Shown here: positions 7,639 to 63,922 of the stretch, one piece after another
Layout: each line of letters opens with the position of its first letter
Numbering within the stretch: the first letter of the stretch is position 1
NCBI GenBank assembly: GCA_001600815.1
Contig: BCKZ01000017.1
Coordinates: forward strand, 98,390-162,389
Source of the DNA: Alloascoidea hylecoeti
Lineage: Eukaryota
Length of the DNA stretch: 64,000 nucleotides
Direction of reading: 5' to 3'
Translations under genes and position numbers: made by a program
Notes under the pieces: model-generated
The model's input: only the letters and a program-made list of their open reading frames with translations
What the model was told of the DNA's origin: nothing
Database searches by the model: none

Positions 7639-9711
7639 TTACTGTTGTTGACTATTAACAGCCAATTCCATGATTAATCTTGTAGCTAAATGTAAAAAAG
7701 GATATGCTGAAAATGTGGATATCTCATCTTCTTTTTCTTTTTCCGTCATATTTGGATCAATTAATTTCGGAATTGTTGCAATTGAAGTTGAAGTTGATGA
7801 TTCCCAACCATCAAATTTAAAATCAACAAGGTAATTATTTGGTTCAATTTGATATAATTGAATTTGCATTTTCATATAGTCTGAAGAGTAAGGATGTGAA
7901 TTCAATTCATTGTCATTGTCATTATCATCAGTTGAAAATGGAACCGTAATTGGGTTTGGGTTTGGATTTGAATTCGGGACTGGAGGGGTATATTTCCACC
8001 TAACATGGATTGTCCACAATTCTTGATCATTAGGTTTTGTCCAAACAGCCCCTAAACTTTTTAATGCTCTATATATTTCTCCCATTACATCCAAAGGATA
8101 CGATCTACTTCTTATACCGAAATGCCATCTTGTTTTTGATTTTTTGATACTGATTTGAGAGATCTTTTTAATGTCTTTTAATTTTGGACTATCAGCATAC
8201 ATTTCAATCATTTTTTCGCGATGATATGAAGGTAATGACGTCTGTAAAGTTTGAATTTTCGATTCAAATGGTTGAGGATTTGAAGTTTGTGATAATTGCA
8301 TTGACATTGGCAAATGATGACCATCCATTGATACACTTTGATGACGATCATAATGGTGATGATGACTACTATGAATGCCATCGTCAGGATTTTCTAGATT
8401 CTGTGATGAATCGTCATCTTCATTATAATCAGATGCATTCATGACATTATTAAGTTTGCTTCTTAATTCATCTGCCATGATTTTATTTTCCTGAACCAGT
8501 TGATAAGCATCTCTAATTTGACTATCATTTTCTTGACAATTACTATTTGTTCGACTTAATGCTTCATACACTTCTTCTTTATTATAACCCATCGTCTCTC
8601 TTAATGCACCAACAACGGAATCATCAATTGCAAGTGCTTTATTTGAAACTTCCTTTTGTTGCTTCAATTGAGCAGTCACTGGTAATAAATAATCAGGTAA
8701 ATCTATCTTAAACCACGGATCATTCATGATTTCATAAACAGTTATTCTACTTAATGGGTTAACAACTAACATTCTTGTTAATAAATTTTTAGCTCCATTT
8801 GATAAGAAATTTGGTATTGCATAATGACCAGTACTTATTTTTTTAAATAAGGCGGGGATAAATTCATCATCAAATGGTAAACGACCACATAGCATTACAT
8901 ATAAAATAACCCCACAACTCCAAACATCAACTTCTGGGCCAGCGTATAATTTCCCAGATATAACTTCAGGGGCAGCATAATTTGGAGATCCACAGCTTGT
9001 TTTTAAAAAATTTCCATCAATCATTATGTTTGATAAACCAAAATCACCAATCTTAACATCAAGATTATCATCAAGGAATAAGTTTTCAGGTTTTAAATCA
9101 CGATGTACGATCTTATGTCGATGACAGTAATCAATAGCAGAAATGATCTGCTGGAAAAATCTGCGTGCTTCAGATTCGTTCATTTTCCCATTTGTTACGA
9201 TATAATCAAATAATTCTTTACCAGCAAATTCGATAACCATTATAATTTCATATTTTGATTTTATGACATCGTATAATTTGATAATATGAGGATGGCTCAA
9301 TAATCGTAAGTATGAGATTTCTCGTTCAATTCTACCTTGCATATCAGATTTTGCTAGAATTTTCCGATTTATAATTTTTAAAGCAACTTTTTGATTTGTA
9401 TTTACATGATAAGCTAGTTTAACTTTCCCAAATGAACCTTCTCCTAAAGTTTTGATGATTTGATATTTACCTATTCTACCTAATGAAGATTTAGAGTTTT
9501 GGGAATCTGTACTGTCACTTGTAGTTGTAGTTGTAGTTGTAGTTGTAGTAGTAGATGATTCATTACTACCATTACTACTACCATTTCCATTACCACGAGA
9601 GGTAGAACGATGATGGTGGTGATGGTGATGATGATGTGAACGGCTTTTAGATTCCTGAGATTGTGAAGAAGTAGAAGATTTCAGAGAATCATTGTCATTA
9701 ATTGAAGACAT
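7639..9711 (-). CDS. SNF1: AMP-activated protein kinase catalytic subunit Snf1, ~690 aa
   Basis: N-terminal poly-His tract, kinase domain (LGEGSFGKVK, HRDLKPEN, DGNFLKTSCGSPNYAAPE), UBA-like region, C-terminal KTRWHFGIRSRS and PFLHLATRLIMELA. Start placed at ATG 9711 (MSSINDND). Confidence 0.97.
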   Translation of the reverse strand: MSSINDNDSLKSSTSSQSQESKSRSHHHHHHHHHRSTSRGNGNGSSNGSNESSTTTTTTTTTTTSDSTDSQNSKSSLGRIGKYQIIKTLGEGSFGKVKLAYHVNTNQKVALKIINRKILAKSDMQGRIEREISYLRLLSHPHIIKLYDVIKSKYEIIMVIEFAGKELFDYIVTNGKMNESEARRFFQQIISAIDYCHRHKIVHRDLKPENLFLDDNLDVKIGDFGLSNIMIDGNFLKTSCGSPNYAAPEVISGKLYAGPEVDVWSCGVILYVMLCGRLPFDDEFIPALFKKISTGHYAIPNFLSNGAKNLLTRMLVVNPLSRITVYEIMNDPWFKIDLPDYLLPVTAQLKQQKEVSNKALAIDDSVVGALRETMGYNKEEVYEALSRTNSNCQENDSQIRDAYQLVQENKIMADELRSKLNNVMNASDYNEDDDSSQNLENPDDGIHSSHHHHYDRHQSVSMDGHHLPMSMQLSQTSNPQPFESKIQTLQTSLPSYHREKMIEMYADSPKLKDIKKISQISIKKSKTRWHFGIRSRSYPLDVMGEIYRALKSLGAVWTKPNDQELWTIHVRWKYTPPVPNSNPNPNPITVPFSTDDNDNDNELNSHPYSSDYMKMQIQLYQIEPNNYLVDFKFDGWESSTSTSIATIPKLIDPNMTEKEKEDEISTFSAYPFLHLATRLIMELAVNSQQQ

Positions 9712-9908
9712 TATTACTATAAATGTTTGTAGACTGTAAGTGCAAACCTTATTTAGCCAGCAAAATAACAATTGAGAAAACACACAAATGAAAAATGCAG
9801 CACAAAAATATAGCAGAAGAAATGAAAAATAAAAATATAAAAATATAATAAATAAAAGTTTCATTTATTAACATTTCCAATAGATTTTCAGGGGATGACA
9901 GAGTGTTT

Positions 9909-9916
9909 CCGGGTAA
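9909..9916. promoter_or_regulatory. Reb1-type site CCGGGTAA upstream of SNF1
   Basis: Exact match to TTACCCGG (reverse strand), ~200 bp upstream of the SNF1 ATG. Confidence 0.55.
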
Positions 9917-9932
9917 CCATATATAACAGAGA

Positions 9933-10721
9933 TTATCTGTAGTAAACGCGTTCTTTTCTTCTTCGTGAATATTCTTCTTCACTTCCACTTCCACTTCCAT
10001 CGTCTCGTTCTCGTTCTCGTTCTCTGGGACGATACGAACGTTCTCGATCATGTGTTCTGCGGCGGCGTCTGTAATCGTCATAGTCGTGGTGGTATTCATT
10101 TTTTTCTCGTTCTCGGTATCTTGATCTGGGGTCAGTCGTCGAGTGTCGATGTCGTTCACCACTTCTATCTCTCGATTCTCTTACTTCTCTCCGTTGTTTT
10201 CTTTCTAGTTCAAGTTCTCTTCGTTTCTCTTGGATCAGTTGTTCTGGAACACCATCGCGGTCTAACTGGGCTGATAATAATAAATCCCATAATTCAGTAC
10301 AAAATTTCGATGCTTCTTCAGGGATGAACTCTCGTAATTGTAGTTGGATTGATTTTATATTCGGCTGAATGAGTTAAATTTATTAGTTTGATTTATCGTG
10401 ATTGAAAATTTATATACTACTTAGTACTTACATATTGTGCCTGCTTTAATAATTCCAAAACAAAGTCAATTGTGATATCATCATCCGGTAAATATTCATT
10501 TAACTATAATATATTCAAAAGTTGTTAATATGATTTACTTTTGTAGTACAATTTGTATTTTTATAGCTTACCTTCTTACCAACCCAAGTTTCCATTATAG
10601 CCTCATTCACTTTACTTAAATCGACTTTTTCATCAAAAGAAGCAGGATATTTATATTTTGTGAATTCCCTTTGTTCGCTTTTTGAAACTTCAACATTTGT
10701 CGTTAGGAAGTTCTTAAACAT
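9933..10721 (-). CDS. PWI-domain splicing factor with Arg/Glu/Ser-rich tail (SRRM1/SRm160/Pwi1-like); exons 10721-10572, 10503-10432, 10364-9933
   Basis: Not called as one ORF in the track. Introns 10571-10504 (GTAAGC...TATTAAC...TAG) and 10431-10365 (GTAAGT...AACTAAT...CAG) join YPASFDEKVDLSKVNEAIMETWVGKK|LNEYLPDDDITIDFVLELLKQAQY|PNIKSIQLQLREFIPEEASKFCTELWDLLLSAQLDRDGVPEQLIQEKR (PWI domain), then an RE/RS-rich tail ending at TAA 9935-9933. Confidence 0.88.
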
Positions 10722-10959
10722 CGGTAATAATTATAAATTTATAATGGTGTATTTCAAATTTATAGATATTTGATGTGATGATATGTACTGCAGTCTGTTA
10801 TTTACTCTATCATGATTTTATTCCCAACTCCATTTAAATATACTCAATTATCTGGCAGTTTCTATGGATTTTTGTAGGTGAACTACTCGAATACTCATAT
10901 TCAAAAACTTAATTAAAAAATTAAAAATGCCATCCAATTATAATTTTTTTTTTCCCTTT

Positions 10960-11135
10960 AAAATTTTGCAATGTGTCTATTTACCTCCCTATTCACCGGA
11001 CCTAAATCCGATTGAGCTATTTTGGGCAGCATCAAAATCTCGTGTTAAACGTGAGCTTGTTGATAAAGAGGAGGAATTAATTGAAAAATCGTGATGCTGT
11101 GAAAACCATACTAATAGAATATTATAAAACTTTTT
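10960..11135 (+). mobile_element. Tc1/mariner/IS630-family transposase C-terminal relic
   Basis: From 10978 reads YLPPYSPDLNPIELFWAASKSRVKRE, the diagnostic DDE third-motif region, then a frameshift and truncation at ~11135. Confidence 0.85.
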
Positions 11136-11430
11136 GGGAAAATAGTTAATTAACTCCCACACAGAACGCTAATTAATTATTGTACATATCACCAATTACT
11201 TTTTACAGAAAGCGCCAATTAAAATCCAAGGATAAGTCTAATTAATTTTCAGCAATATCGCCAATAATTTTCGCACAAATCACTAGTTAATTTTCAAATA
11301 AGTGGCTAATTAATTATTCCTACGGATCGCTAAATAATTTTATAGAATAGCCCTAATTAATTTACGTAAATAACGCTAATTAATTCTCAGAAATATCGCT
11401 AATTATTTACGAAAATAGCGCTATTAATAG
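11136..11430. repeat. 13-unit degenerate tandem array, ~23-bp period, conserved core CGCTAATTAATT with variable ~11-nt spacers
   Basis: Core starts at 11144, 11167, 11190, 11213, 11236, 11259, 11281, 11304, 11328, 11351, 11374, 11397 and 11419 (spacing 22-24 bp, mostly 23). Confidence 0.9.
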
Positions 11431-11503
11431 GTGGAAGGACTATCGTATGAGCTGTTGAAAATAGCATTGACTAAATTTGCAACTAGAAAAGATAAACATC
11501 CCT

Positions 11504-12320
11504 CTATTCAGCTTTTGTGTATCTCATCTTGTAGAACGAAATGAGCCTATTAATGTTCCCTTGGTTTTTAAATAAATCTGGAACTTTTAAATTAGAAATT
11601 CCAGCTTGTTCTCGCATCAAAATCCATTTGGAACAATGCAACACTTCATGATCGAAAGTTGGCTTATTCTCTCCGCAATGATCACACGGAATTGAACCCG
11701 ATGCCAGGCACATTTTCGTTTTATATTCGATCACGCCAGTACCACTTAGCAATTGCGAAATGGCAGAGCTAATCTGTTTGTCTAAATCACCAGTGAAGGC
11801 CAGTAGGGTTTCTTTACGTGATGTTGGAACTTTGAGTCTTTTTGATCGATTATATTTGTACAATTTAGGGATATTATTGGCTGAGAAAACCTGAATCCAT
11901 TTGATTTTCAACCATATCTCAACTTCCAAGCTAGTTGTTGTTGATTTAAGGTAGGAAACTTTATTTTTAAATAGTGCTTTATCCTGTGATTCAATGACGC
12001 GATTAGCGACTTTAAATTAATATCGTTTGTAGCCTGAAATTGTCTGAAAATTGGTTGTAGGTTAATTGATTGTTGATGATATTGAATTTCATTTTCCATT
12101 ACTTTTGTAATAGGATTAAAGCGCGGTAAATCCAACAGGCTTCTTCCCCGATTAATTAGATTACGGGCTTCAATTTTGAGATTTATTGGAGGTTCCCCCG
12201 TCTCGATATGGAGAAAAGTGATGGGAGTTGCTCTCAAAACCCCTAACACTAATCTTAAACACTTGTTCTGAATTATGTTTAATTTGGTTACATTTGTTTT
12301 TGTAAGGTTTTGGGAATCTA
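11504..12320 (-). mobile_element. 5'-truncated, frameshifted non-LTR retrotransposon (LINE) ORF2 C-terminal fragment
   Basis: Post-RT motif KLNIIQNKCLRLVLGVLRATPITFLHIETGEPPI (~12290-12185). After a frameshift at ~11910-11930, SQLLSGTG...CDHCGENKPTFDHEVLHC (C-x2-C-x8-H-x4-C knuckle), typical of LINE ORF2 ends. Confidence 0.8.
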
Positions 12321-12377
12321 ATTATAATTAATTTTGTAAGGTAAATATTTGGATATGTGATCAGTCGACATATAGCT

Positions 12378-12385
12378 CCGGGTAA
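12378..12385. promoter_or_regulatory. Reb1-type site CCGGGTAA
   Basis: Exact consensus ~70 bp upstream of ATG 12457. Confidence 0.55.
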
Positions 12386-12456
12386 CACTCAATGTTTATA
12401 TTTCGCGAAACCTCTGAAAATTACTGCTAATTTCAACATTTCGTATATTTGTTTAA

Positions 12457-14898
12457 ATGTCTGATGAAACTCCAATAAGATGGTCAACAGCTAAATGTCG
12501 AAGAGCAATTAGACCATTAAGCTCACGACTCAAAGCCTTTCACGATCAGATTAATACATATTCATCTGCGTACATAGATTCAAAACAGAATATCAAAATT
12601 GAAAATAAATGTTTCCCATGGGGTTCGAATACTAATCAAATTCATGAGGAAGAGGTAATTGGAAGAAATATATACGGCAAAAGGAAAAGGAGGAAAGATA
12701 ATTTTGCTAGTCATATTACTGTTAATAATGTTTTTTCACCTATTGTTGTAAATGTTGAGGAAAATAAAACGCGAAATAAAAGGGAAATCAATGAATTTGA
12801 TAAAACACCAATACATACCTATGATAATAAACGATTATCATTATTGAATCAAACTCCTTACAATCAGACTTGGAATTTTAATACGAATCAGCCATTAACT
12901 TCAGATCTTTTTTTATTCCACCAAAAGAAATGGGTTAGTGAAGAAGAAAGTGAAGGATATACAGAGATTTTCACATCATTCAAACGTTTTTTAGCATACA
13001 CATATAAAGGGTCAGCAATTAAATTAACTGAAAAATCGGCATTTCAAATTGGTCGATGTATCACATACACAGAAGATGATATAGAAGATGTAGATTGGTA
13101 TGAATATTCGGTTTTAATGTCACAATATAGACAATTTATTGTTTTAGGGCAAGGTATTGGATTAATTATAAAATATTCAAGTGATATTTTATCATTATTA
13201 CCTGTTTTGACTTTATATTGTTGTGAGATTAATGCAATCGAATTATCAAGATTAATGTTTGAATCTTACTTAAAATTAATTGATGATGAATTATTTTGGA
13301 TCGATTTTAAAATGATTATATATTTACAGGAAAGAACAAGAATGGATAAAAGTATTATATTACAAGCTTCTTGTGGAAAGATTAATTTACATCTTCATTC
13401 TCATTTAAATTTAAATTTAAATGGAAATGGAAATAGAAAAGATATTGAAAAAATAATTAATAATGAGAATTTTTATGATATTTTAAATTGGGATCTTGAT
13501 AATAAATGTGATTTTAAGTATCAAATCAATTTAATTCTTTTTTCAATTAAAGCTTTACATGATAATTATTTTAGTAAGAAAAGTAAATATCATAATAACG
13601 TCTTATCATCAACAGATTATGAAGAAAAACAAGAAAACATACATGGTATACTGGAAAGAACATTAAGAGTTTTCATTACATACTGTTCAAATGAATGGCT
13701 GAATCCATCTTTAAACAATAATGATATAATTAAAAAATCAATTAAAAGATTATTAAGTTATTTATCAAAAATTGCAGCATATGATTATTTTTCAAATTTA
13801 ATATCTGCATTTAAACTTTGCATCTATGGTATGAATTATATCATTAGGAGAAGATCGGACGATTTGTTTTTACATTCTTTACCAACACCATCAAATGCTA
13901 AAAATAATGATTCATTTGATACTGAAGAAAAACCAATAGATGATAGTATTGACTTAATTGAATTAATAATCTCATTCACGGGTAATAATTTAAGCGTTAT
14001 AAAATCAATTGTTGAGTTATTAATTTCTAATCATAACATACTGCTAGCATCGGCATTATCACAACAATTTATTAATAAATTTGGTAGTCTAGAATCAATC
14101 ACATGGCATGATAAAATTGAATCAAAAATCATTAAAGAATTAAATAAAAATAATGATAATGATAAATTGATCTTTTTGGAAAGTCTAGGAGCATGGATTG
14201 AGAAAAAGACCCCAATAAAGCCACGACATATTCTAAGGACAAGGAAAAGAAAATTAAGAAGCTTTAATGATAAAAATGATAATAATAATGACCCAAGGAG
14301 TAGCAGTAATAATGATGATGAGGATGATGATGATGATGATGATGATGAAGAAATTGGGAAACCGGTTATATTCAAGTTAAATACCACACCAAAACGTGTC
14401 ATGCTATCTCCTAAATCTGTTAAAAGATTAAAAGAGTTGTACTCTGCGCATATTACACCAAAAGTCAAAAGAATCAATCCAAATCGGGATGTAACCATAT
14501 TAAGTGGTACTAACGTTAGCACCACGACTACAACAACTGATAATGATCTTTTTTCAGATGGAGATAATACTGATGATGATGGATATTCAACTGCTCCTGA
14601 AACTCCTGAAGATTATCAAAGAACACTACAACATTCTTCCCAACATTTAGAATCTCCTTTAAACAATAAAATAACAAAATCATCAGTACAATCAAATTCA
14701 TTTTTGAACAAGAAAATAAATAAAGATGAAAATAATCATATTACGAGAAATATAAGGACAGCAAATATAAATCTAAAAGAAAGGTTTAATAATAAAAGTT
14801 TAGCGATTAAAAATGCAAAAGTATCTAAAAGATTTACTAAAAAGCTGATAAAAAAATTAAGGAAAAATGCTGGTAATGATGATGGATCTATTATATAG
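12457..14898 (+). CDS. Uncharacterised 813-aa protein with acidic/basic low-complexity C-terminus
   Basis: Long uninterrupted ORF with a Reb1-type site upstream. The N-terminal WSTAKCRRAIRPLSSRL resembles a motif I recall from uncharacterised fungal proteins. Basic NLS-like clusters (KRKRRK, RTRKRKLR) and several S/T-P-x-K/R sites. Confidence 0.85.
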   Translation: MSDETPIRWSTAKCRRAIRPLSSRLKAFHDQINTYSSAYIDSKQNIKIENKCFPWGSNTNQIHEEEVIGRNIYGKRKRRKDNFASHITVNNVFSPIVVNVEENKTRNKREINEFDKTPIHTYDNKRLSLLNQTPYNQTWNFNTNQPLTSDLFLFHQKKWVSEEESEGYTEIFTSFKRFLAYTYKGSAIKLTEKSAFQIGRCITYTEDDIEDVDWYEYSVLMSQYRQFIVLGQGIGLIIKYSSDILSLLPVLTLYCCEINAIELSRLMFESYLKLIDDELFWIDFKMIIYLQERTRMDKSIILQASCGKINLHLHSHLNLNLNGNGNRKDIEKIINNENFYDILNWDLDNKCDFKYQINLILFSIKALHDNYFSKKSKYHNNVLSSTDYEEKQENIHGILERTLRVFITYCSNEWLNPSLNNNDIIKKSIKRLLSYLSKIAAYDYFSNLISAFKLCIYGMNYIIRRRSDDLFLHSLPTPSNAKNNDSFDTEEKPIDDSIDLIELIISFTGNNLSVIKSIVELLISNHNILLASALSQQFINKFGSLESITWHDKIESKIIKELNKNNDNDKLIFLESLGAWIEKKTPIKPRHILRTRKRKLRSFNDKNDNNNDPRSSSNNDDEDDDDDDDDEEIGKPVIFKLNTTPKRVMLSPKSVKRLKELYSAHITPKVKRINPNRDVTILSGTNVSTTTTTTDNDLFSDGDNTDDDGYSTAPETPEDYQRTLQHSSQHLESPLNNKITKSSVQSNSFLNKKINKDENNHITRNIRTANINLKERFNNKSLAIKNAKVSKRFTKKLIKKLRKNAGNDDGSII

Positions 14899-48635: not shown

Positions 48636-49224
48636 ACAAAAGATTATGTATTTAAAGTTTGTAGCTAAAAATGAGATTGATACAAACCAGTATTGAGGCA
48701 GATAAGATGTTGTGGGTATTGATCATATGTAATCTTCTGTAAAAAACTTATTTTAATTCGATATTTCTTTGGATCATACACTTCTGACATTCACATTATT
48801 TGAATTATATTATTATTAGGTTCCAGACAATGATATTTTGTATAGCTCATAATAAACCCTATTTATTCTTAAGAAATCATTATAAATATATGTAAGGATA
48901 AAAGTACTTTCAACTCAAAAGTTATTAATCTCTTCGTAATTAATATGCATGCACATATTGGTTTTCGAGTTGCCAGATTAATCACTGCATATGCAGCGTT
49001 AACGGCAATTATTGTAGTATCATATCATTTTGATAAAATATAGCGATTTTGATTGGTTCATTAAGCCATCTTTTCCCTCTTTTAAAAAAAGTTGATGAAG
49101 CACCAGAAACAGGTATATTAAATAACTCTATGTCCATTATGAATATTCCCTCCCAAATTTCTTGATCTTTTATCATCAATAATTGGGGTATATAACATTG
49201 ATCTAAAGTTTCTACTATTATTAA

Positions 49225-49225
<1 letters not shown>

Positions 49226-49270
<45 letters not shown>
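49226..49270. repeat. (ATT)15 microsatellite
   Basis: Perfect trinucleotide run; reads as poly-Asn on the minus strand within a possible gene relic. Confidence 0.9.
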
Positions 49271-49272
<2 letters not shown>

Positions 49273-63319: not shown

Positions 63320-63371
63320 TTGAACTTAAATGTTCAACATTAAAATCAAAATATCACTATAGCTATGATTG

Positions 63372-63390
63372 CTACTACTACTACTATTAT

Positions 63391-63428
<38 letters not shown>
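63372..63428. repeat. Imperfect (CTA)n microsatellite
   Basis: CTA run interrupted by TTA units, just downstream of the TGL4 stop. Confidence 0.85.
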
Positions 63429-63922
63429 ATACAACTGATTTTAATTAATAATTTATATTATCAATTTAAAGATTTGATAAATTAAAACGTTACGAATAGC
63501 ATAAAAACATAAAAGCATACTAACACAATGGCATAAAGACAAAAGAAAATAAAATGAATTTTTTTATATAATGATAAAAAGGAAAGAGGGTTATAATTAA
63601 TCAGTTATAATAAAAAAAGGGAATGAAATATATGCCAACATAAACATTAAAAAGATAAAATAACTAGGTGTAGCATTAATTTTAACAAAAACAAAAATGT
63701 ATGATATATATTTTTCATGATATTACACATTACCATTAATATTCACCTGTTGAGATAATTATCTCGAAATTAGGGTTGAATACAATTAATTTTCTATATG
63801 GCTATAGCTAATTATGGTAGTCTTGATCGAAATAATGTGATCACATGATCTGTTACCCTGCCTTAGACATCTTATTAAATTTCAAAATAGTGGTGAATTA
63901 TAAGATTATAGATTTAAAAATA

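Follow-up and report, generated by a model that had tools for sequence, protein, structure and literature searches.

What kind of object is a strictly periodic array of short units that lies beside both a Tc1-type transposase relic and a fragment of a non-LTR retrotransposon (LINE) in a budding yeast? We addressed this question in a 64-kb window, by which we mean the whole stretch of DNA analysed (64,000 nucleotides), and all coordinates below refer to it. Taken as a whole, the answer that we consider likely is that the array is the right-hand terminal-inverted-repeat region of a Tc1-type (DD34E, Tc1-MP1/Dici-like) transposon with its tip at 11441/11442, that its units would be docking sites for transposase, and that the relic would have been brought to its present position by a LINE.

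A strictly phased array with a conserved core

Thirteen core-like units recur at steps of 22-24 bp over 11144-11441, with core starts at 11144, 11167, 11190, 11213, 11236, 11259, 11281, 11304, 11328, 11351, 11374, 11397 and 11419; nine of the 12 spacings are 23 bp, two are 22 bp and one is 24 bp. The exact core is found in units 2 and 11 only, and units 1 and 13 carry three mismatches apiece. Allowing at most one mismatch, the word CGCTAATTAATT has six matches in the 64-kb window, where 0.96 are expected; all six fall inside the array, and none of 100 shuffles equalled this number. The autocorrelation of the array at lag 23 is 0.514, a value that none of 1,000 shuffles reached (shuffle maximum 0.432 over lags 5-75). 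Information content within the unit peaks at CGC (1.3-2.1 bits), with CGCTA the most informative part of the core. Core positions have a mean modal count of 10.9 of 13 and spacer positions one of 7.1 of 13, and pairwise identity between units is 0.65 as against 0.36. Unit positions, autocorrelation and shuffles thus bear out an earlier reading of this DNA, made without database searches (hereafter the sequence-only reading), which had described a strict 13-unit array of about 23 bp with a conserved core: the periodic array is real.

The same reading had held that the spacers differ in every unit. They are indeed poorly conserved, but they are also weakly alike, with a pairwise identity of 0.358 compared with 0.295 ± 0.015 after shuffling, and none of 2,000 shuffles reached the observed value. 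The units of the array therefore share ancestry and descend from one another. Tandem Repeats Finder detects the right third of the array only (11330-11428; period 23, 4.4 copies, 74% matches).

The array is the right end of a Tc1-type transposon

By Pfam and tblastn comparison, the plus-strand sequence at 10969-11149 is what is left of the C terminus of a Tc1-type (DDE_3) transposase, probably of the DD34E kind; its frame shifts near 11088 and closes with a stop codon at 11147-11149. The open reading frame ending at 11094 matches the Pfam family DDE_3 (PF13358) with an E value of 4.8e-10 over profile positions 107-146 of 146. With the 44-residue relic as query, 14 proteins among 641 candidates matched at E ≤ 1e-3, the closest being P0001, which is 88% identical to it and runs past the window's stop with FRDAVKSIPKEYYKNFCKHSS... 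At 146 residues P0001 is itself a fragment; it was the best family protein found for this yeast's element, the search yielding no full-length transposase. When P0001 was aligned to the window by tblastn, 39 of 47 residues were identical in frame +1 at 10948-11088 and 13 of 21 in frame +2 at 11084-11146. Since the continuation of P0001 is matched in the next frame, the window copy has been frameshifted near 11088. It is dead, and only about its last 60 codons and its right end survive. In intact copies the frame would go on for about 13 more codons, entering the first unit or two of the array.

The relic also accounts for the left edge. The sequence-only reading had placed there a hairpin-forming sequence preceded by T5, and the letters are present, with GGGAAAATAGTTAATTAACTCCC at 11136-11158 and T5 ahead of it at 11131-11135. 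They lie, however, within the frameshifted transposase frame, T5 and "GGGAAAATAG..." encoding the ...T-F-W-E-N-S-stop of the transposase tail, and so are coding sequence, neither a tail nor a tip. The array, which had been taken as a separate feature between the Tc1 relic and the LINE, belongs to that very Tc1-type element as its 3' terminal region. As an object it is nothing out of the ordinary, a transposon end contiguous with the relic, and on the evidence of its periodicity, its multiple copies and their common boundary we assign the 13 units at 11144-11441 (plus strand) to the sub-terminal and terminal part of the right terminal inverted repeat.

The evidence on copies comes from assembled contigs of two strains (X1 and X4, samples of organism A) and of other organisms (X9 and X10), aligned to the window at 80% likeness. 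No contig of X9 or X10 aligned at that level, which is not proof of absence. The depth of single-copy flanks in X1 is 57-59. Summed contig depth, which is not the same as copy number, is 558 at 11016-11092, 315 at 11093-11246, 868 at 11247-11323 and about 1970 (1971) at 11324-11477, with 3890 at position 11409 from 20 contigs; X4 gives a profile of the same shape at lower depth. Twenty distinct contigs over 11409 imply many distinct copies of the array, and because no contig fits two places of the stretch, the rise in depth does not come from units aligning with one another's positions. Where contigs pass the frameshift, one from X1 has an extra T inserted behind 11090, and one contig each in X1 and X4 departs after 11089 as a loose end and then reads as P0001.

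The sequence-only reading had named a single-copy array among its refuting conditions and the comparison of spacers between copies among its checks. On the first, the array proved to be multi-copy and associated with the Tc1-type element, not single-copy. On the second, one other copy (record 3) aligns over 11130-11385 with 43 differences and one gap, that is, 256 bp of array at 83% identity with the spacers included; each spacer is therefore specific to its place in the array and has been passed on as such from copy to copy. Several contigs depart from the window within the array (before 11353 and behind 11343 and 11391 are instances), and the number of units seemingly differs between copies.

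At the right edge the copies end together. After 11441, seven contigs in X1 and five in X4 continue unlike the window, and the 30-letter consensus of these loose ends has an agreement of only 0.51-0.57, about that of unrelated AT-rich flanks, although it begins G, T, A in both strains. These loose ends delimit the terminal unit and transposon tip at 11419-11441 on the plus strand (...GGTGGAAGGACT), beyond which a G and then TA probably follow in the consensus of the family. The family end would accordingly be ...GGACTG followed by a TA duplication, with CAGTC as the tip; the window's own end reads ...GGACT-A-TCG, two letters short of the inferred ...GGACTG-TA. In addition, a single short contig in each strain links 11006 with 11203, the two lying on opposite strands. 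The inverted orientation of the array rests on that contig, whose pieces are consistent only with an inverted array (11362 down to 11203) followed by sense transposase from 11006. Such a layout would correspond to a left end that an internal deletion has brought up against the gene's 3' part. The contigs of the two strains showed no complete element, with both ends and a full transposase.

These data bear on two other identities that the sequence-only reading had proposed. Under the first, the array would be a structured 3' UTR proper to the LINE family, closed by a hairpin with a short A tail. Its position is the expected one, past the minus-strand ORF2 stop and ahead of the insertion tail, and the reading was right to place it there: the stop lies on one side of the array and the true LINE tail on the other, this being a T10 in an insertion bounded by a 14-bp duplication (see below). 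The array is not, however, the LINE's own UTR. Copies of the array should then always lie downstream of the LINE ORF2, yet summed depth is 315-1971 per bin in the array and only 59-246 in the LINE part (11478-12700), or 5-68 times the single-copy level as against 1-4 times, and the copies run into unrelated flanks after 11441. The supposed T5 and hairpin are transposase coding sequence. Nor did folding of the minus-strand RNA, which had also been suggested as a check, reveal a structure: on that strand, the LINE's, the array has a z score of −0.25, with 43 of 100 shuffles folding as well or better, the other strand (z +0.14) does no better than shuffles, and a search of Rfam over 9000-14000 gave no match at E ≤ 1. 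Finally, the array stands inverted beside transposase sequence in one contig per strain. In our view the LINE-UTR reading is already refuted for the family, and we regard it as very improbable for this array.

Still less credible is the second identity, one arm of a Mutator- or Foldback-type element with the tip GGGAAAA. A long, internally repetitive terminal repeat is a hallmark of Foldback-like elements (PMC3688188), and the view of the array as a long modular terminal repeat is in essence the one favoured here. But the proposed tip is inside the transposase frame, the boundary shared by the copies is at the opposite, right edge (11441), and the linked gene is of DDE_3/Tc1 type, with no Mutator or Foldback-type protein nearby; among the alignments listed there were no copies ending at 11136 with 9-bp duplications. 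Each of the two proposed identities was half right.

Placement among known Tc1-type elements

Although the window relic keeps only the E side of the catalytic triad, P0001 retains 34 residues between the second D (VMDNSPIH) and the E (NPIE). It matches DDE_3 at E 3.8e-20. When P0001 was compared with longer proteins, 35 of 142 candidates matched at E ≤ 1e-5. The best of them, P0015 (434 residues; E 5.2e-19, 41% identity over 84% of P0001), matches DDE_3 at E 1.1e-24, and the remaining 34, at E ≥ 2.7e-10, are fungal Tc1-like transposases of about 325 residues. P0001 and P0015 have in common a C-terminal tail and a KKRK run, which in P0001 is the KKRKK of its first residues (MNKKRKKD) and in P0015 stands as AKKRKA; the corresponding part is absent from the window relic. 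By these comparisons the transposase would fall in the DD34E, Tc1-MP1/Dici-like group, and the array would belong to a new member of a known family.

Tc1-MP1 of Mucor piriformis encodes a DD34E transposase of 434 residues between 141-bp terminal repeats (Chang et al. 2023, PMC9977792) and appears as FUN-MUPI-1 in the Dici family (PMC13469147). Dici comprises IS630/Tc1/mariner transposons of yeasts and Mucorales with DD34E transposases, multi-copy in yeasts; the transposases have 432-478 residues and a GRPR-like motif flanked by two helix-turn-helix motifs, and in the published table all 24 elements have TA duplications and terminal repeats range from 8 to 187 bp (PMC13469147). The element described here resembles Tc1-MP1 in a long terminal repeat that begins directly after a short 3' UTR and, to judge from P0001 and P0015, probably also in its DD34E signature, in the basic KKRK-type run of the catalytic domain and in a similar C-terminal tail. 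It differs in host, a budding yeast rather than a Mucor, in having 13 units in about 300 bp where Tc1-MP1 has 6-7 in 141 bp, and in an otherwise unrelated unit sequence, with the tip CACTA there and the inferred CAGTC here. The inferred tip equals that of three yeast Dici elements, from Candida parapsilosis and both Diutina elements in the table, whereas the present terminal repeat, no shorter than 240 bp and probably some 300 bp, is longer than any size tabulated (PMC13469147). Candida Cirt2 was considered as the family and rejected, being a pogo/DDxD element with 46-bp repeats (PMC13469147).

Metagenomes were also scanned. The 21-nt terminal word of the window gave no matches, and P0001 matched 41 loci, the best at 61% identity over 56 residues and none closely related. 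An inverted-repeat search at four of the 41 (L004, L013, L037 and L029) found no transposon-like ends, and a periodicity scan of all 41 gave as its only signal a 27-bp period inside the open reading frame of L029. That locus lies with L032, L033 and L038 on one 76-kb metagenome contig, which holds four or more copies of a unit of about 1.9 kb, some 80% identical to one another. The unit carries a Tc1-like open reading frame of 478 residues whose C-terminal tail resembles the Tc1-MP1 type; in L029 and its sister copies no terminal inverted repeats and no phased motif were detectable. Separately, the stretch 10900-11700 is almost wholly represented (0.88 of the words sampled) in a wood-decay metagenome run, besides three runs of organism A.

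A common 23-bp step and candidate docking sites

We compared the array with the ends of Tc1-MP1 and Tc1-OP1 by counting by hand on the printed sequence (PMC9977792, supplement s1.txt), whose blocks for Tc1-MP1 sum to the stated 141 bp. In the left repeat of Tc1-MP1 the hexamer T[G/A]CG[C/T][A/T] starts at 21, 44, 67, 90, 113 and 136, with a further copy at 159 in the 5' UTR, and in the right repeat it starts at 1, 24, 47, 70, 93 and 116, all steps being 23 bp. Counted from the inferred tip at 11442, the GCG of the window units falls at 22-24, 44-46, 67-69, 90-92, 113-115, 137-139 and 160-162, and onward to 299; by this hand count its register agrees with that of the Tc1-MP1 hexamer to within 1 nt in all seven comparable units. 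Read from the tip inward, both elements have AT-rich sequence ahead of the GCG. A rougher hand count of the 169-bp repeat of Tc1-OP1 gave about seven copies of a 15-nt word at steps of 20-23 bp, with one of 33 bp.

This regular end architecture is visible in the published relative but passes without comment in the available text of both papers: that of PMC9977792 does not mention a 23-bp periodicity, the terms 'tandem' and 'direct repeat' each having no occurrence, and in the available main text of PMC13469147 'tandem repeat' occurs in the methods and references only. A limited literature search, which is not proof of novelty, found no paper on tandem binding sites in the long terminal repeats of a fungal Tc1 element. 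The sizes of the terminal repeats tabulated for Dici also offer a lead, though a weak and post hoc one: 15 of the 23 sizes are no more than 4 bp away from a multiple of 23 (for example 115, 138, 141, 164 and 187; P 0.01), and among the 17 periods tried a period of 28 does nearly as well (P 0.0135).

Variation between copies appears to point to the core in the same way as variation between units. Among the 19 substitution sites listed inside the array, cores account for five and spacers for 14 (binomial P 0.02), a count that draws on 40 of 119 variant rows and may be biased. At two of the five core sites the change brings back the consensus or the 23-bp step, as does the majority insertion behind 11268. 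The core is apparently better kept than the spacers between copies as well as within the array.

Because the same register is found in Tc1-MP1, the best reading of the units is as putative phased docking sites for transposase. Each 23-bp unit, with its AT-rich stretch and GCG-centred core, would be one site for the N-terminal DNA-binding domain, whose two helix-turn-helix motifs, in a paired-type domain, would fit a bipartite site made of the AT-rich part and the GCG part. The dozen or so phased sites at each end could load several transposase molecules and help the two ends to find each other. Alternatively, the array may belong to the transposon end and have no binding role, as a minisatellite expanded by slippage or unequal exchange whose phasing is only apparent. 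The shared ancestry of the units, spacers included, is what such an origin would leave, as is a number of units that apparently varies between copies, to judge from the contigs that depart inside the array; and among the tandem repeats in the terminal repeats of Galileo/Foldback elements only some bind transposase (PMC3688188). Expansion of this kind nevertheless sits poorly with a core so much better kept than the spacer, both within the array and between copies (five sites as against 14), and with the same 23-bp step and register from the tip, by hand count, in Tc1-MP1, where the unit sequence is otherwise unlike. We regard a purely expanded minisatellite as unlikely. Docking sites, which the sequence-only reading had preferred to a slippage minisatellite, are thus in essence favoured by the retention of core and register, with the amendment that the units do share ancestry.

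More tentatively, and with rather more doubt than conviction, we suggest that the Tc1-MP1/Dici clade as a whole may share a 'ruler' end, in which GCG sites are set at 23-bp steps from 22 nt off the tip and the register has been kept between yeast and Mucor despite divergence of the units themselves. Were this true, it would imply 6 to 13 transposase molecules arrayed along each end. To our knowledge a synaptic architecture of this kind has not been described in Tc1/mariner elements, for which one to three sites per end is the usual view.

The relic appears to have been carried by a LINE

The window relic has no left end and therefore could not have transposed to this position on its own, and its surroundings suggest another route. 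To its right, at 11504-12315 on the minus strand, tblastn identifies part of a 5'-truncated LINE ORF2; it is spread over two frames and has a Cys/His motif at its C-terminal end, the open-reading-frame pieces reaching 12321. Four ORF2-like proteins (P0055, P0071, P0059 and P0061) align to 12303-11929 with E values of 0.9-4.1e-9; all four contain RVT_1, and some Exo_endo_phos and/or RNase H. A HMMER search with the 137-residue LINE piece gave 49 matches at E ≤ 1e-3 and none at ≤ 1e-10; six long ones were scanned, of which five contain RVT_1 and three of these also Exo_endo_phos, P0050 being unrelated. The 170-residue piece had no match in a word-based search and no Pfam family. Between the transposon tip and the ORF2 stop, downstream of the frame ending at 11504, lie the 62 nt of a presumed LINE 3' UTR (11442-11503, minus strand), which contain no A run; the 11478-11554 bin has a depth of 142, about 2.5 times single copy.

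A candidate 14-bp target-site duplication encloses the whole. Its left copy (ATCCAATTATAATT) lies at 10932-10945, abutting a T run, and its right copy (ATCTAATTATAATT) at 12316-12329, beginning 13 bp past the last LINE homology (12303). The two agree at 13 of 14 positions and are the sole pair of 14-mers with at most one mismatch between 10860-10960 and 12280-12460; any such pair arose in 18 of 1,000 shuffles, and the duplication is significant only at about 0.02. Directly after the left copy the plus strand has T10 (10944-10953), which we take as the A10 tail of a minus-strand LINE insertion, since target-primed reverse transcription predicts it at just this place. On the minus strand the order is the 5'-truncated LINE, the 62-nt presumed UTR, the antisense relic from the tip inward, about 15 nt, and A10. 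One duplication thus encloses LINE, relic and tail, and the LINE is truncated at its 5' end, as in insertions that carry a passenger. The region 10946-12315 looks like one target-primed LINE insertion of 1.37 kb, which suggests that the transposon relic was carried in by it. A progenitor LINE would have had a Tc1-type transposon inserted in its 3' UTR; its transcript would have been polyadenylated early, inside the transposon, which would explain the sharp truncation near 10966; and the chimeric RNA would then have been retrotransposed into the present site.

The alternative is that the transposon inserted in place, into the 3' UTR of a resident LINE, and that its left 1.3 kb was later deleted. 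The tip does adjoin a TA in the presumed LINE UTR, as such an insertion would have it. The deletion would, however, have had to take the left end and yet stop about 15 bp short of the A10 tail, and both strains have the same structure, with no empty or intermediate form among their contigs. We consider this course of events improbable, and the LINE-borne origin preferable to it.

Passengers of this kind are known from human L1, in the form of 3' transduction and chimeric retrotransposition. The present insertion shares with L1 3' transduction a 5'-truncated LINE, foreign sequence before the poly(A) and one target duplication around the whole; it differs in that the passenger is the antisense end of a DNA transposon. 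We know of no report of such a LINE-carried DNA-transposon end from a budding yeast. For the yeast LINE Zorro3, alternate-template behaviour, or template switching, has been described (PMC7175516).

Two minor features of the LINE part may be recorded. An exact 11-bp word (TTTTGTAAGGT) occurs at 12298-12308, in the LINE 5' end, and at 12332-12342, in the flank, on either side of the right duplication copy, and may be microhomology used at the 5' junction or chance. At 11982-12087 one contig per strain skips 104 nt, with several small indels nearby, corresponding to a diverged LINE copy elsewhere in the genome.

Discussion

The reading of the array as a transposon end explains a puzzling periodic sequence, which thereby ceases to count as unexplained. 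In budding yeasts DNA transposons are rare; to one such yeast the locus adds a high-copy Tc1-type family with non-autonomous derivatives, as well as an apparent case of a DNA-transposon fragment moved by a LINE. The interest that remains lies in the strict 23-bp architecture held in common with a distant relative and in the LINE-borne history.

Tc1 elements of the IR-DR type have two or three binding sites at each end, well separated, and differ in this from the dozen or so abutting candidate sites at a fixed 23-bp step described here. What the two arrangements would have in common is more than one transposase site, present as direct repeats in long terminal repeats, as in Sleeping Beauty as well as Bari-like elements (PMC3688188). 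Galileo and Foldback-like elements likewise have long, internally repetitive terminal repeats, and extra sites for their THAP transposase have been shown within the tandem repeats (Marzo et al. 2013, PMC3688188); they differ in belonging to the P/THAP-domain superfamily, in much longer units and in terminal repeats of 0.5-1.2 kb. The authors of that study proposed that many weak, short sites confer specificity (PMC3688188). If the 23-bp units are binding sites, the element would offer a simple system for asking how a transposase gains specificity from many weak, phased sites and how such sites drive the pairing of ends.

The neighbourhood of the insertion holds a gene for a SNF1/AMPK-type kinase at 7639-9864 (minus strand), with Pkinase, UBA_2 and AdenylateSensor domains and runs of nine His and 11 Thr near its N terminus. 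Adjoining the LINE insertion on the other side is an open reading frame of 813 residues (12457-14898, plus strand), acidic and Asn-rich with an Asp/Glu run and with no credible Pfam family. Elsewhere in the window two trinucleotide runs stand out, CTA repeated about 22 times with a 21-bp superstructure at 63363-63436 and TAT repeated 19 times at 49216-49272.
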